Source: an uncultured Acidobacteriota bacterium (GTDB taxonomy: Bacteria; Acidobacteriota; UBA6911). From it: 64,000 nucleotides of DNA. Within the stretch, counting starts at the first letter, position 1. Every line of letters starts with the position of its first letter. A model generated the notes under the pieces. That model worked only from the letters and a program-made list of their open reading frames with translations. It was not told the DNA's origin and ran no database searches. Location of the stretch: assembly GCA_963843575.1 (NCBI GenBank), contig CAWJKZ010000024.1, forward strand, positions 96,001-160,000, given 5' to 3'. Below are positions 2,847 through 56,377 of this stretch, in pieces. Position numbers and translations under genes: made by a program.

Positions 2847-5186
2847 GTGAAGAATGGTTTTTTCGGGGCGGGCCTGATCCTTGCCTGCACCCTCAGCCTG
2901 GCCGGGTACCATCTCGCCGGTGCAGGCCGGTCGCCGCAGGGGTTGCTCGGCGCCATCACGATCGATTATCCGCTGGACGGTTCGCTCTTTCCCCCGGACA
3001 TGACGGCCCCGACCTTCCTCTGGCACGACGCCGTGGAGGAGGCGACGGTCTGGCGGGTCGAGGTGAGTGTAGACGGCCGCCCGCTCCCGTTCCGGATCCG
3101 TTCCCTGGGCGAGCGTATGACCGTTGGGGCGATCGACCCGCGGTGTGTCGGTCCCACCAACAGGCTCCCCACACTTAGCCCGGCCGAGGAGGCAGCCCAC
3201 ACCTGGACGCCGGACGGGTCAACCTGGGAGATCATCAAGCAGGCCTCGTCGGAGCGGGACGCTACCGTCACAATCACCGGCTACGCCGGCCAGGGAGCCG
3301 CTCGGGCGGTGTCGCGCGGCCGCGTCACCATCCGCACCTCCATCGACCCGGTCGGGGCGCCGATCTTCTACCGCGACGTGCCCTTGATGCCCTCCGAGCT
3401 CGAGAAGGGCGTCATCAAGCCGCTGGCCCCAAGGCTCCTCCCCTACATCGCCTGGCGCCTGCGCGATGTCGCGGAGCCGCGCAGCCGCGTGGTCATGGAG
3501 GGGATCCACACGTGCGCCAACTGCCACTCGTTCTCCCGGGACGGCAAGACGCTTGGACTGGATTTGGACGGGCCGCACAACGACAAGGGGCTGTACGCGA
3601 TCGTCTCCGTCGGACCCGAGATGTCCATCCGGAACAGCGACGTGATCTCGTGGAAGACTTTCCGCGACCAGACCGCAGCCGACAAGAGAATTGGCTTCAT
3701 GTCGCAGGTCTCGCCGGACGGCATGCACGTCGTGACGGCCACGGAGGTCGAATACTACGTCGCGAACTTCAAGGACTATCGTTTCCTCCAGGTCTTCTAT
3801 CCGACGCGCGGGATACTGGCGTACTACAGCCGGTCGGACGGGCGGATGCGGGCCCTGCCGGGGGCGGACGATCCCCGCTACGTGCAGGCCAACGCCGTCT
3901 GGAGCCCCGACGGCCGCTACCTGGTCTTCGCCCGGGCGGCCGCGTCGGATCCCTATCCCGCGGGGCGGCCGATGGCCGAGTATCCCAACGATCCCAACGA
4001 GGTGCCCATCCGCTACGACCTTTACCGGATCCCCTTCAACGATGGGCGGGGCGGCGTGCCGACCGCCATCGCGGGCGCATCGCACAACGGCATGAGCAAC
4101 TCGTTCCCGAAGATCTCGCCCGACGGCCGCTGGATCGTCTTCGTTCAGTGCCGCAACGGTCAGCTCATGCGTCCCGACGGCCAGCTCTTCATCGTGCCCG
4201 CCGACGGGGGCACGGCGCGCAGAATGCGCTGCAACACGCCGCTCATGAACTCGTGGCACAGTTTCTCCCCGAACGGCCGCTGGCTGGTTTTCTCCTCGAA
4301 AAGCCGCTCTCCCTACACCCAGATGTTCCTCACCCACATCGACGGGAATGGCGACGACAGCCCGGCCATCCTGGTCGAGAACACCACCGCAGCCAACCGG
4401 GCCGTGAATATCCCGGAGTTCGTCAACATACCGTCGGAGGGCATGCGGCGGATCGATGCGCCGGCCACCGAGTTCTACCGCCTCTACGACAGTGCCTGGG
4501 ATCTGACCGAGAAAGGCGAGATCGAGGCCGCGCTCGCCGAGTGGGGCAGGGCGCTGGCCCTCGATCCGGCCGATGCCAAGGCCCGGAACAACTTCGGAGC
4601 CCTGCTTTTGCGGGCGGGCCGGCTCGAACAGGCGGCGGATCAACTGCGGAGGGTAGTTGCGGCGAGACCGGAGTTCGTCAGCGCCCGCAACAATCTCGGG
4701 CTTGCTCTCTTCGAGGTCGGAAAAGTCGACGAGGCGATCGAACAGTGGTCGCAATCGCTGGAGCTGAACCCGGACTCTACGGAGGCCCGTCTCAACCTGG
4801 GGAACGCCTTTCTCGTGCGTGGCCGATTCGGGGAGGCAGCCGGGCAGTGGCTCGCCGCGCTCGCATTGGAGCCGAACCGGATCCCGGTCCTGAGTAACCT
4901 GGCGTGGATGCTGGCCACATGCCCCGATGCGCGCGCCCGGGACGGCCGCCAGGCGGTGGAGTATGCCGAGCGCGCCCTGAAGCTCTCCGGCGTGGAGGAT
5001 CCCTTGCTCCTGGACATCGCGGGCGCCGCCTACGCCGAGGCCGGACGGTTTGCCGAGGCTGCGCAAGCGGCCCGCCGCGGGCTCGCCGTCGCTGCCCGTC
5101 TCGCCGACCCGCAGCGCGCCGACGCGCTCAAGACCAGGCTCTCGCTTTACGAGCGACGAACGGCTTACCGCGACCCGAAACCGTAA
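2847..5186 (+). CDS. Exported TolB/PD40-repeat + TPR protein with one CXXCH motif
   Basis: GGAGG then GTG; hydrophobic N-terminus; CANCH; repeated SPDG/SPNG PD40 motifs; C-terminal TPRs. Confidence 0.75.
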   Translation: MKNGFFGAGLILACTLSLAGYHLAGAGRSPQGLLGAITIDYPLDGSLFPPDMTAPTFLWHDAVEEATVWRVEVSVDGRPLPFRIRSLGERMTVGAIDPRCVGPTNRLPTLSPAEEAAHTWTPDGSTWEIIKQASSERDATVTITGYAGQGAARAVSRGRVTIRTSIDPVGAPIFYRDVPLMPSELEKGVIKPLAPRLLPYIAWRLRDVAEPRSRVVMEGIHTCANCHSFSRDGKTLGLDLDGPHNDKGLYAIVSVGPEMSIRNSDVISWKTFRDQTAADKRIGFMSQVSPDGMHVVTATEVEYYVANFKDYRFLQVFYPTRGILAYYSRSDGRMRALPGADDPRYVQANAVWSPDGRYLVFARAAASDPYPAGRPMAEYPNDPNEVPIRYDLYRIPFNDGRGGVPTAIAGASHNGMSNSFPKISPDGRWIVFVQCRNGQLMRPDGQLFIVPADGGTARRMRCNTPLMNSWHSFSPNGRWLVFSSKSRSPYTQMFLTHIDGNGDDSPAILVENTTAANRAVNIPEFVNIPSEGMRRIDAPATEFYRLYDSAWDLTEKGEIEAALAEWGRALALDPADAKARNNFGALLLRAGRLEQAADQLRRVVAARPEFVSARNNLGLALFEVGKVDEAIEQWSQSLELNPDSTEARLNLGNAFLVRGRFGEAAGQWLAALALEPNRIPVLSNLAWMLATCPDARARDGRQAVEYAERALKLSGVEDPLLLDIAGAAYAEAGRFAEAAQAARRGLAVAARLADPQRADALKTRLSLYERRTAYRDPKP

Positions 5187-22425: not shown

Positions 22426-22510
22426 TTCTTCGAGAGCCTTGAAGCCTTTGAGACTTCGAGGTGGCTTTTGCAGCTCCACCTCGAAGTCTCAACGCCTCGA
22501 AGAATCTCAA
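22426..22510. repeat. Palindromic repeat family B, intact copy
   Basis: Perfect 17-bp IR TTGAGACTTCGAGGTGG / CCACCTCGAAGTCTCAA plus outer TTCTTCGAG / CTCGAAGAA; between convergent genes. Confidence 0.8.
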
Positions 22511-53298: not shown

Positions 53299-54604
53299 AA
53301 CCGCTGGGATTCTCGTTCTGCTGCTCGCCGCGTGCGCCGCCGCCCCCGTCAGGGGGGCGCAGGCCCCGGGACCGGGCTCCACCGTCACCTTGACACTCGA
53401 AGACACCCTGCGACGCGCGCTCGCGCGCGCCCCGGAAGCCGCCCTGGCCCGGGCACAGGCCGACAGGGCCGTCGCGGCGGTCCGCGAGACAAGGTCGGCC
53501 AACCTCCCCCAGATCCTCACCGGGACCGGGCTTGCCTACAACAACGGTTTTCCGCTAAGCATCGAAGGATCCGCGCCTTCCCTGTTTCAGGTCGGCTTCA
53601 CGCAATCGATACTCAGCCGACGCAACAAGAACCTGATTCTCGAGGCCGAGCAGAGCCGCGACGCCAGCCGCATCGCGCCCGAGGCCGCCGAAAACGACCT
53701 CGCCGCACGCTGGGCCCTGGTCTATTACGCGCTGCACCACGCGCGCAAGGCGGAGGCGCTCTGGGAGGCGCGCGTGCAGTCGGCCGTCGAGCAGCAGCGC
53801 ATCGCCGCCAGCAAGCTCGAAGCCGGGAAAATCCGCCCCGTCGACGTGACCCTGGCCGAGGCGGCCGTATTGGAGTCGGGCCAGCAAGCCTTGGTCGCCC
53901 GCGAACAGGCACGAGTGGCCGAATCGGAACTCAGGGCTGCGGTCGGCTTGCCCGACGGAACGCGCCTGCGAACCGTCGAGCCGCAATTCGACCCGACCCC
54001 GGCGTCCGGGTCGCCCGAAGAGCTGTACCGCCGCGCGCTCGAGGCCCACCCGGAGGTGCGCCAGGCCGAAGCCCGATTGCGCGCCCGCGAGCTACACGTC
54101 GAAGCCGAAAAAGGGGAATTCCGTCCGCGCCTGGAACTCGTGAGCCAGTACGCGCTGTTCAGCCGGACCAACAACTACCAGGATTTCTTCAACCGCTTCA
54201 CCCGGAATAATTTCCTGTTCGGCCTCTCGGTCCAGGTCCCCGTGTTCGACGGCTTCCGGTCCAGCGCCCGCGTCGCGCAAAGCCGCCAGGAGGCTGCCGA
54301 GTCCCGCCTGGAGCTGGAGCGGCTGCAGAATGAACTCCGCCTCGGCATAGAACGCGCCGTGAGCGCCCTGTCCATCTCCCGCGGTGCACGCCAGCTCGCC
54401 GACCGCCAGCTGTCCGCCGCAAGGCAGTTGCTCGCGGTCAACGAATCCCTGTTCGAAGGGGGCCGCATCGCCCCCGGGGAACTCGACGAGGCGCGCACCC
54501 AGGTGCGCGAAAAGGAACTCGCCGAGCTGGAGGCGAGGCGCGCCCTGTTCGAACGGGGTATCGAACTGCTGCGGGTGACGGGGAATATGAAGTCAATACT
54601 ATGA
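53291..54604 (+). CDS. TolC family outer membrane efflux protein
   Basis: Signal peptide; two OEP repeats; GLSVQVPVFDG. Confidence 0.8.
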   Translation: MSKTAGILVLLLAACAAAPVRGAQAPGPGSTVTLTLEDTLRRALARAPEAALARAQADRAVAAVRETRSANLPQILTGTGLAYNNGFPLSIEGSAPSLFQVGFTQSILSRRNKNLILEAEQSRDASRIAPEAAENDLAARWALVYYALHHARKAEALWEARVQSAVEQQRIAASKLEAGKIRPVDVTLAEAAVLESGQQALVAREQARVAESELRAAVGLPDGTRLRTVEPQFDPTPASGSPEELYRRALEAHPEVRQAEARLRARELHVEAEKGEFRPRLELVSQYALFSRTNNYQDFFNRFTRNNFLFGLSVQVPVFDGFRSSARVAQSRQEAAESRLELERLQNELRLGIERAVSALSISRGARQLADRQLSAARQLLAVNESLFEGGRIAPGELDEARTQVREKELAELEARRALFERGIELLRVTGNMKSIL

Positions 54605-54613
54605 AGGTTTTGC

Positions 54614-54645
54614 AGATTCTTTGAGCTCTTAGAGACTTGGAGGTG
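54614..54645. repeat. Family B palindrome, left arm (flanks IS110 remnant)
   Basis: AGATTCTTTGAGCTCTTAGAGACTTGGAGGTG resembles reverse complement of 22477-22507 (AGATTCTTCGAGGCGTTGAGACTTCGAGGTG). Confidence 0.7.
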
Positions 54646-54653
54646 CGGCGGGC

Positions 54654-54803
54654 CTATTCTCAAAGTGGAGACTCTGGCGGTAAACGCAACGCCAGGCCTA
54701 TGTCTTTGACAGAGACTCCGCCTTGTCCGTTCCCGACTGGCGCTTTCCCTCCAACATGGCACTGTGGCGACTTTGCAGGGATCGTTTTACGCCACGGGAC
54801 GGA
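54654..54803 (-). ncRNA. Candidate bridge/seek-type RNA in the non-coding end of the IS110 element
   Basis: Two nested stem systems by eye: 54665-54721 (GTGGAG/CTCCGC, CTGGCG/CGCCAG, TGTC/GACA) and 54726-54803 (TCCGTTCCCG/CGGGACGGA, GTGGCG/CGCCAC). Confidence 0.45.
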
Positions 54804-55375
54804 TCATGATGTCGTTACTCGCTCATCGTCGTACCCCTCTTTGAAACGCAAACAGTGTTGTGCCACCACCGCCACCTTGCGCGCCAGGTTCCGCTTCAAG
54901 CGTTCAGGCGATACGCCGGCCTCCAGCCCGTCGCGCCACATCCGGGTCAGCGCATTGTCCGCCTCCGGCCGGGACGCGATCGCGGCAGCGGCCGTCATCA
55001 GGACATTCTTGGTGTAGCGGTTGCCCTGGCGGGACGCTCCCCGATGACCTTTCCCATCCGACTCATGCTTTCGTATCCCCACCCCGCAGTACTGCCACAG
55101 CTGGCGTTTGTTCCTCAAACGCCAGCCGTCTTCAAGTTAGGCAATCAGGGTACACGCCCCGATAAATCCCACTCCGGGTACCGTTTTCAGACGGAGCTCC
55201 TGTTCCCGAAAGGGTTTGACCAGTTCCCTCAGGATATTGATGTGGGCCGCCTTCCTGCCCCGGAAAGATCCACTTCCCGTGTCCGGACCTTCTTGTACTC
55301 CACCTCCCGGCCGCGGTCGTTCAATACGCTGATGTGAGTTGTTGAGCTGTGTCCGTCCAATCCTATATGCTTCAT
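54804..55375 (-). pseudogene. IS110 transposase pseudogene
   Basis: GGAGG then MKHIGLDGHSSTTHISVLNDRG (DEDD N-terminus); deletion junction near 55265; LKTVPGVG HhH; in-frame TAA at 55137-55139; YCGVG...HESDG...GNRYTK...LARK. Confidence 0.85.
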
Positions 55376-55463
55376 CTAGGGCCTCCGGTTTCATGGTTGC
55401 CAAGGAATCCGATCCTTGCCGGTAACCATGTCAGTTTACCGCGAGGCCCGTTCTGTCATAGTT

Positions 55464-55504
55464 TCTCGAAGGCTCGAAGAATCTCGAAGGCTCGAAGAAT
55501 CTCA
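55464..55504. repeat. Family B palindrome, right arm with tandem 18-mer
   Basis: TCTCGAAGGCTCGAAGAA x2 then TCTCA; shares CTCGAAGAATCTCA with 22496-22509. Confidence 0.75.
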
Positions 55505-56377
55505 GAGAGGAATCCTCTGCGGTTTGTAGCGCATCGCGAGTGCTCGCACCGCGATGGCGGCTTTTTCGGGGCCGGACAGGCGTACGCTCGTCCCGAACAC
55601 GTCGTAACGCCTGCGGATGATTTTCTTCAGGATGCGCCCGTAGATTTCCATCATCGCCCAGAGTGCCGGCCGGCTTGCCGGCTCGATCATGGGCAGGAGC
55701 CTGCGCCCGTTTGCGTAATACTGGGCTGCGCGGGCGCTCTCGAAGCTCATGAGGCTGCGGAACCGCTCGTCGACCAGGGCGCGCTTCAGGTCCTCGGGGG
55801 GGTAGCCGAAGCGTTCCAGGTCCTCGAGCGGCAGGTAGATGCGGCCCATGGCGGCGTCTTCCTTGAGGTCTCTGAGGATGTTGGTGAGCTGGAAGGCGAT
55901 GCCGCAGTGTTCGGCGTGTTCCTTGGCGCACTCCTGCGCGAACCCGAAGATCTGCAGGCAGACGAGCCCGACCGAGGAGGCCACGTTGAAGCAGTAGCGG
56001 TAGAGGTCCTCGAAGGTCCGATAGCTGTCGATGTCGAGATCCATTTCGGCGCCGTCGATAATCCAGTGGAAGTACCGGGCGGGGATGGCGAAGCGCTCCA
56101 GGGTGTCGTAGAAGGCGGGCAGGATGGGGTCTGCCCCGAGGTCCCCGCGGAGCGCGGCGTCGAGCCGGTCGCGCCAGCGGCGCAGGAGGGCGCGCTTCTG
56201 GGCGACGGCCTCGGTGCCGTCGGATATGTCGTCGCAGTAGCGCATGAAGGCGTAGACGGCGCAGAGGCCGCGGCGCTTTTCCGGGGGGAGCACGACGAAG
56301 GAGTAGTAGAAGTTCCGGGCGCGGCTGCGGGCGACGGTTTCGGCGCAGCGGTAGGATTGTGCGAGTTCTGAGTTCAT
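55502..56377 (-). CDS. hpnD: Presqualene diphosphate synthase HpnD / phytoene-squalene synthase family
   Basis: NFYYSF, YAFMRYCDDISD, YCFNVASSVG, AFQLTNILRDLKED, GRIYLP. Confidence 0.8.
   Translation of the reverse strand: MNSELAQSYRCAETVARSRARNFYYSFVVLPPEKRRGLCAVYAFMRYCDDISDGTEAVAQKRALLRRWRDRLDAALRGDLGADPILPAFYDTLERFAIPARYFHWIIDGAEMDLDIDSYRTFEDLYRYCFNVASSVGLVCLQIFGFAQECAKEHAEHCGIAFQLTNILRDLKEDAAMGRIYLPLEDLERFGYPPEDLKRALVDERFRSLMSFESARAAQYYANGRRLLPMIEPASRPALWAMMEIYGRILKKIIRRRYDVFGTSVRLSGPEKAAIAVRALAMRYKPQRIPL

Follow-up and report, generated by a model that had tools for sequence, protein, structure and literature searches.

The stretch of 64,000 nucleotides analyzed here (the window: contig CAWJKZ010000024.1 of assembly GCA_963843575.1, positions 96,001 to 160,000, from an uncultured Acidobacteriota bacterium) contains on its minus strand a copy of an insertion sequence (IS) that is very probably an inert remnant of an IS110-family element with IS1111-type organization, an element of a known kind. 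The copy shows three lesions: an internal deletion of ~460 bp, a nonsense mutation, and a 3′ deletion. Downstream of the wrecked transposase gene it has kept the first module of a conserved RNA, whose loop strands covary in relatives with the DNA on either side of the insertion. An internally deleted IS110-family element had been proposed in an earlier sequence-only reading of the window, and this assignment is supported by Pfam and by the relatives of the element.

The ends of the intact element could be defined because genome G019 contains three copies that are 99% identical, share 1840 bp, and each carry a gene for a 343-amino acid transposase (P0001). This protein has the domains DEDD_Tnp_IS110 (PF01548, E value of 1.3e-13) and Transposase_20; with the NCBIfam model NF033542 ("IS110 family RNA-guided transposase") it scored 137.7 bits against a cut-off of 140, and the window fragment scored 66.4 bits. 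DNA searches gave matches in 6 of 61 genomes, including that of the window, and protein searches in 6 of 137 genomes of the class; the records of the relatives are from Terriglobia and Acidobacteriota. A large protein collection contained 192 relatives at an E value of 1e-30 or better, most of those listed being 343 amino acids long. With an alignment of 28 protein relatives 77 metagenome loci were obtained, and a search of genome contigs with a single protein gave 5 loci. Five metagenome loci (L067, L075, L091, L106, and L107) were dropped because the match spanned only the N-terminal half; the remaining 72 together with the three from G019 formed a set of 75 relatives.

The left end was recognized in 64 of these 75 relatives and the right end in 61. 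The RNA lies directly 3′ of the stop codon in 64 of the 75, with its stem-loop 2 at most 400 nt from the gene; in five more loci, stem-loop 2 was found farther downstream, behind a second transposase gene. With ^ marking the junction, the left end reads GA^AAC(or A)TATGACAGAACGGGCC and the right end ...TCTTGAC(A/T)TC(T/C)GATCTGTCATA^GA, and of the 53 loci having both ends, 49 show GA at each junction. The left end comprises ~88 to 95 nt. A subterminal inverted repeat of 10 to 12 bp, CTATGACAGA(A/T)C on the left, recurs in inverse orientation on the right; the window has retained the left one only, whose CTATGACAGA is inverted relative to TCTGTCATAG at the right end of the relatives. The noncoding region 3′ of the gene is 399 to 678 nt long in 56 of 61 loci and 1879 to 2469 nt in the other five, in which a second transposase gene follows the first. 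Such tandem pairs of paralogous transposase genes, sharing one guide RNA and one right end downstream, were observed in L036 (2501-5405), L037, L063, L065, and L066 and also in genome G014 (L029).

The transposase gene of the window copy has kept its Shine-Dalgarno sequence and the start MKHIGLDGH, as described before, but residues ~38 to 190 of the 343-residue relative are missing at the junction at 55266, where the reading frame is shifted. The C-terminal fragment matched Transposase_20 (PF02371) with an E value of 6.4e-15 and was 53% identical in tblastn to residues 191 to 342 of P0001. Its HESDG serine, pointed out in the sequence-only reading, aligns via the full-length P0001 with the serine of the YES-G motif of the IS621 transposase. 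No Pfam match was found for the 48-amino acid N-terminal fragment, and the DEDD (RuvC-like) domain PF01548 is absent from the window copy. Contigs of a public sequencing run (X1) that are 95 to 99% identical to the window element support these lesions. X1 records 2 and 3 match the window up to 55266 from either side and then continue with unlike sequence, as expected of transposase-gene sequence that is absent from the window; the loose end past record 3 resembles a sibling fragment in the window's genome. At position 55137, X1 has C on the minus strand (G on the plus strand) and reads TAC (Tyr), whereas the window has the in-frame TAA already recognized earlier. Apart from this nonsense mutation, 13 substitutions are listed between the window copy and X1, whose left flank is another ...CTTCGA^GA site.

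The boundary at 54643 turned out to be a truncation and not an IS end. Here the window departs, after GGCCCGCCGCAC, from all 58 aligned relatives, and X1 record 1 carries on past 54642 with the conserved 3′ sequence of the family. The relatives and the X1 contigs continue for ~240 to 520 nt, a length estimated from the 3′ regions of the relatives. The deletion took from the window copy its right end with the subterminal inverted repeat of that side, the TTGACA hexamer, a second conserved loop, and the adjoining right target flank from its first bases on; we infer that the palindrome apex went with them. At up to 5 mismatches, neither a right end nor the conserved 3′ segment was found anywhere in the assembly, which is 88% complete and consists of 27 contigs. 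An intact transposase of this lineage was not found in it either. Only two other pieces of the same lineage were present in the genome, one with the left end and the N-terminal part (92% identical) and the other comprising 124 bp of the C-terminal part (95% identical). In the sister species G001, neither the element nor the palindrome is present in the orthologous intergenic region; the spacer there, of ~120 nt, is unrelated, so the original target cannot be reconstructed from it.

The ~160 nt following the stop codon fold into two stem-loops in minimum-free-energy predictions, in agreement with the two stem systems seen by eye in the sequence-only reading. Structure statistics were obtained from an alignment of 59 sequences by RNAalifold and by pair counts. 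In stem-loop 2, the basal helix (GGGCGG-A-GUCU with AGGC-CCGCCC) was 98.8% paired and the top helix 95.9%, with compensatory changes in 9 of the 10 top-helix pairs. Helices 1 and 2 of stem-loop 1 were 66 to 67% paired in this sequence-based alignment, with compensatory changes in 10 of 15 and 10 of 14 pairs, respectively. Support is thus strong for stem-loop 2, and stem-loop 1 is supported less well. Over the whole structure 79.8% of the alignment cells were paired, compared to 35 to 48% when the partners were slid, and the covariation score was 0.256 compared to 0.150 after shuffling, a value reached in none of 500 shuffles. A covariance model of stem-loop 2 built without the window recognized the window at full length (1-86) with 83.4 bits and an E value of 4.5e-15, and an nhmmer profile built likewise found the window RNA with an E value of 3e-30 as the sole strong match in the genome. 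Rfam gave no match better than an E value of 1.9 in 54000-56000, no family for the RNA in a scan of the whole window, and no match at 0.01 or better for the RNA of seven relatives. A scan of 54400-55700 for sigma-70-like promoters found none.

The internal loop of stem-loop 2 contains two variable strands between the invariant motifs GAGUCUC and UAGG. The 3′ strand copies the left flank of the insertion and the GA core. The complement of the right flank is provided by the 5′ strand, and both strands track the flanks of each insertion in ~45 independent relatives. From positions -6 to -1, the left guide was identical to the flank in fractions of 0.76, 0.80, 0.87, 0.70, 0.98, and 1.0 of 46 unique pairs, compared to 0.29, 0.49, 0.39, 0.25, 0.66, and 0.46 after shuffling. 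Mean agreement with 44 unique pairs each was 5.55 of 9 positions for the left guide (3.02 shuffled) and, with two registers one base apart permitted, 9.18 of 10 for the right guide (5.31 shuffled). Neither value was reached in 10000 shuffles, which overstate independence because related elements share targets; the targets cover at least four unrelated sequence families. In 55 of 55 loci, the guide base that follows the GA core is the one with which the element begins; it is G in three of them. A test of covariation between loop and flank had been suggested for the downstream region; run here, it was positive, and the region is a conserved structured RNA with target specificity. The right guide of the window differs from that of the X1 copy by one base, at 54707. 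A perfect cognate target for the two window guides was not found in the genome: sites with at most 3 mismatches numbered 12 versus 5 in the control in one register and 3 versus 4 in the other, and the best had 2 to 3 mismatches, barely above control.

Several further pairings were considered and rejected. A by-eye search of stem-loop 1 for a donor-binding guide, that is, for matches to the left or right end, gave none varying along with the end variants. A long-range helix between the conserved TATTTCAT 3′ of stem-loop 2 and GAAATA of the right-end module was unsupported, with a duplex energy of -16.4 for own pairs versus -17.1 for cross pairs. The 7-nt complementarity of TTGGAGG to the flank, earlier offered as weak support, concerns bases in the conserved inner stem of stem-loop 1 and not the guide.

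The earlier proposal that the lineage inserts into a family of repeated palindromes was borne out. CTTNGAG-type repeats form 32 clusters of at least 4 units in the genome versus 0 in the reversed control. The tandem units are arranged as palindromes that resemble repetitive extragenic palindromes (REPs), at 22426-22510 of the window and in 31 other places of the genome. BLAST with the whole palindrome gave 6 matches in the genome, and the family becomes visible only as clusters of the 7-nt units. Both arms flanking the remnant resemble the halves of the palindrome at 22426-22510, as had been noticed: 54614..54642, which is also counted among the genome clusters, aligned with a score of 28 (shuffled maximum, 21) and 55466..55504 with a score of 38 (shuffled maximum, 22). 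By symmetry with the surviving arm, the insertion point probably lay near the top of one palindrome arm.

Another repeat was observed beside the G019 insertions, which are flanked by the Rfam motif Acido-Lenti-1 (RF01687; in L017 at 4204-4249 on the plus strand and 4304-4349 on the minus strand). At least 149 copies of it were counted in G019, where 150 of 2232 candidates were scored and 149 of these qualified; they often form inverted pairs ~100 nt apart. The window's genome gave 0 matches. Acido-Lenti-1 behaves like a REP-type repeat beside IS landing sites and not like a single-copy small-RNA gene.

Table 1. Positions of the remnant, its parts, and related features (window coordinates unless a locus or contig is named)
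Feature	Position	Strand	Remarks
IS110-family remnant with IS1111-type layout	55463 to 54643	minus	within CTTNGAG palindromic repeat
Left target flank (the "right arm" of the sequence-only reading)	55466..55504	minus	CTTCGAG units in tandem, from the palindromic repeat family
CTTCGA	55471-55466	minus	adjoins GA core
GA core at left junction	55464..55465	minus	common to target and element
Left end, 88 nt	55376..55463	minus	holds subterminal inverted repeat and ribosome-binding site
Subterminal inverted repeat CTATGACAGA	55461-55452	minus	
Shine-Dalgarno sequence GGAGG	55386-55382	minus	
Transposase fragment, codons 1 to ~37 (MKHIGLDGH...)	55266..55375	minus	ATG at 55375; ends at internal deletion junction 55266
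Transposase fragment, residues ~191-342 of 343	54804..55265	minus	shifted frame; Pfam and tblastn
TAA in place of Tyr codon	55139-55137	minus	natural TGA stop at 54806-54804
Stem-loop 1 of downstream RNA	54726..54803	minus	minimum-free-energy folds
Stem-loop 2, target-binding loop	54642..54728	minus	covariance model, pairing, guide/flank covariation
Right-target guide, 5′ loop strand of stem-loop 2	54712-54700	minus	
3′ loop strand of stem-loop 2	54668-54656	minus	left-target guide CTTTGA, GA core, AT
3′ truncation junction	54642..54645	minus	homology ends in shared CAC (54645-54643); flank from 54642
Other arm of interrupted palindrome (the "left arm" of the sequence-only reading)	54614..54642		
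Second module, example	L039 1854-1940		
Other IS1111-type element of the window's genome (G000)	C10:617395-619250, C9:109944-111799, C9:119976-121831 (minus), C15:28970-30836, C9:12842-14709		outside the window

The element (Table 1) sits in an intergenic region on which two genes converge, one for an outer-membrane efflux protein, ending at 54604, and one for a squalene/phytoene synthase (SQS_PSY), ending at 55502; the latter lies on the same strand as the element and ends 38 nt upstream of it.

The relatives show what the right end of the window copy would have contained. All 61 right ends carry a hexamer TTGAC(A/T/C), which ends 14 nt before the last element-specific base. By analogy to ISEc11, where such a hexamer acts together with the left end, it is the better candidate for the junction promoter of the family. 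A different junction promoter had been proposed from the window copy, formed by TTGAGA and TAAACT 18 nt apart when the ends are joined at a shared AG. Both hexamers exist (54663-54658 and 55438-55433, respectively), but their distance is 25 nt when joined at the shared AG and 37 nt at the ends then assumed, and TTGAGA is the left guide plus core itself. The last ~75 nt of the relatives (alignment A4, columns 273-352) also form a conserved hairpin, in which TTCAGATGTCAAGA pairs with TCTTGACATCTGA; the latter holds the -35-like hexamer, and two hairpin pairs show compensatory changes in 17 to 20 sequences. This hairpin may be a regulatory or recombination structure.

A second conserved module, GGTGAGTATCCAATAGA(T/A)G..GGCACG-hairpin, lies 194 to 243 nt (mostly 200 to 205 nt) upstream of the right end in all 61 relatives in which that end was recognized, and it is absent from the window copy. 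Its layout (GAGTATC, ~10 nt, TTGG, hairpin) resembles the 5′ half of stem-loop 2. In 60 of 61 loci, including three related ones with ATAAA at both places, the ATA(G/A)A of this module is identical to the final three bases of the right end followed by the core. The 5 nt after ATA(G/A)A followed the right flank weakly, agreeing at 2.94 of 5 positions compared to 2.17 in controls (33 unique pairs), which none of 10000 shuffles reached. These data are suggestive of a donor- or junction-reading loop with a variable spacer from the target loop. That this lineage of soil and sediment bacteria uses a naturally two-part guide, with a target-binding loop after the gene and a second loop ~200 nt from the right end whose ATAGA would be followed by 3 to 5 nt tracking the right flank, is a conjecture we regard as doubtful. 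If it were true, the window would keep only the target-reading half, equivalent to a natural split bridge RNA; to our knowledge, split bridge RNAs have so far been reported as an engineering result.

Guide strands that read the flanks of an insertion are the principle of the seekRNAs and bridge RNAs published in 2024, and by analogy the lineage would work like the IS1111-family seekRNA and the target-binding loop of the IS621 bridge RNA. On sequence grounds, the lineage can be placed in the IS110 family in the broad sense, and the element appears IS1111-type in its organization, having the inverted repeats, the downstream RNA, and the guide order of that group; this is a likeness in layout and not a proven membership. 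The transposase of 343 amino acids compares with 339 in ISEc11 (Siddiquee et al. 2024, PMC11187229). Shared with the IS1111-family elements ISEc11, ISPa11, and ISKpn4 are the subterminal inverted repeats, the long noncoding region 3′ of the gene, a target-reading RNA module of ~85 nt with the top-strand complement on its 5′ side and the bottom-strand match on its 3′ side, the lack of a duplication beyond the shared core, and a right end with a -35-like hexamer for a circle-junction promoter (PMC11187229). The insertion point TG^AA of ISEc11 likewise spans GA (PMC13604230). Unlike the published 7 (left) and 3 (right) bases outside the inverted repeats, the lineage has 5 and 0 or 3 and 2, an ambiguous count depending on the side to which the shared GA is given and on where the repeat starts. 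Further differences are the long 3′ region and the second loop ~200 nt from the right end, which is not described in the portion of PMC11187229 consulted, and the targets, namely REP-like palindromes, of the CTTNGAG and other types, in bacteria from soil and sediment.

The likeness to IS621 concerns mainly the target loop. Durrant and coworkers as well as Hiraizumi and coworkers reportedly described the IS621 bridge RNA of the IS110 group in 2024. The core of IS621 is CT, versus GA here. In both systems the left guide continues past the core with a base that matches the donor, which we take to resemble a handshake guide. IS621 also has an internal loop with two strands reading both target strands around a 2-nt core (PMC13604230), and its catalytic-serine motif aligns with that of the lineage (PDB 8wt6). 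In contrast to IS621, the RNA lies 3′ and not 5′ of the gene, the order of the guide strands is reversed, no donor-binding loop was found beside the target loop, and the protein similarity is marginal (E value of 7.5e-4, C-terminal domain only). ISPpu9 of Pseudomonas putida, an IS110-family element, also inserts into REPs, has a small-RNA gene downstream of the transposase gene, and is accompanied by partial modules at other genome sites; its small RNA was, however, dispensable for transposition and formed circles of its own (PMC12288879). In the present lineage, targets and RNA loop strands covary, and the fragment in the window has no right end.

The history of the window copy can be outlined on this basis. 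The intact element would have had a left end of ~88 nt, the gene of a 343-residue DEDD/serine recombinase, the 3′ guide-RNA region, and the subterminal inverted repeats. Published work on ISEc11 and IS621 suggests that the RNA would be transcribed and bound by the recombinase. Its 3′ guide strand, with the same sequence as the 6 to 7 nt left of the insertion plus the GA core, would pair with the bottom strand, and its 5′ guide strand, complementary to the 9 to 10 nt right of the core, with the top strand. By the same analogy, the recombinase would catalyze strand exchange at GA between the target and the circularized element, in which the circle junction would place the conserved right-end TTGACA upstream of the left end. 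The window copy presumably landed in a CTTNGAG palindromic repeat between the two convergent genes; it then lost ~460 bp of the recombinase gene and gained the stop codon, and a further deletion removed everything beyond the first guide module, presumably along with the palindrome apex.

Some observations fit an inert remnant less well. The left guide of the window, CTTTGA^GA, agrees with CTTCGA^GA of the flank at only 5 of 6 positions, and the right guide cannot be compared because the right flank is deleted. Independent contigs do not span either deletion junction by 31 nt or more, and with an assembly of this completeness an intact copy might be unassembled; the X1 contigs pass both breakpoints of the window, and the lineage may live elsewhere. 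The RNA has kept every position invariant in the family although the gene is wrecked, which could hint at retention and, with one copy, could equally be chance. A second decayed copy was observed in genome G029 (L003, reverse strand), with left end and RNA intact, the right end absent, and an internal deletion of the transposase gene at points other than those of the window.

This retention of the RNA speaks for an orphan guide RNA: transcription of the remnant might persist, for instance as read-through of the upstream squalene/phytoene synthase gene, and its stable stem-loops might then serve as guide, decoy, or regulatory small RNA. We consider this improbable, as the scan for a sigma-70-like promoter was negative, the second loop common to all complete relatives is missing, no partner recombinase of the lineage is present, and with two decayed copies the survival of 160 nt beside deletions could easily be chance. 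Still less probable is the proposal of the sequence-only reading that the remnant is a nonautonomous RNA-guided element that a transposase acting in trans could move into other copies of the palindrome. The left end, left target flank, and target-binding loop are indeed intact, the genome offers the repeat clusters as targets, and ISEc11 mini-elements that consist of nothing but the ends can be moved by transposase and RNA provided in trans (PMC11187229). Yet circle formation of ISEc11 was abolished when the target bases on either side of the donor were replaced (PMC11187229), and mobilization in trans would fail because the remnant has neither right end nor right flank and ISEc11 needs both flanks. 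The assembly moreover supplies no substitute for the right end and its repeat and no transposase of the lineage, only six copies of another IS whose protein is 34 to 36% identical and whose ends are different, and the cognate sites scarcely exceed the control.

An assembly artifact, in which metagenome mis-joins would mimic both deletions at a locus that really holds a full-length element, has very little to recommend it. The incomplete, fragmented assembly and the unbridged junctions would allow for it. However, repeats usually break contigs instead of yielding clean internal deletions, and the copy also carries the nonsense mutation and the 13 substitutions relative to X1. In addition, the 3′ junction joins straight to the matching other arm of the palindrome. 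Contigs of the runs X2 to X4 span flanks only; one of them, X2 record 8, reaches 23 nt into the element side and matches 54578-54665 without a difference across this junction. We retain the inert remnant of an IS110-family element as the best explanation.

The other IS in the window's genome (G000) is also of IS1111 type. Outside the window, this 1856-bp element occurs three times with 99.8 to 99.9% identity; an 85% variant is present twice and a 72% relative once. Downstream of its gene, each copy has a GAGTCTC...TAGG / GAGTCTCC...ATAGG loop of its own. The right flank, A^CGGCGTTC, is conserved, and its reverse complement forms the 5′ loop strand; the left flanks are not conserved.

The window copy is a fossil and by itself changes little; the lineage behind it has modest uses. 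Gene calling will report decayed copies of this kind as transposase pseudogenes whose seeming end is in fact a deletion. As apparent ends may be deletions, predictions of junction promoters and guides from single copies can mislead. For annotation, the palindromic REP-like repeats of Acidobacteriota can be regarded as landing pads for such elements. The ~45 independent guide/target pairs represent a natural reprogramming series for a recombinase just under the NCBI family cut-off, and they could feed specificity rules for IS1111-type systems, which are far less studied than IS621.

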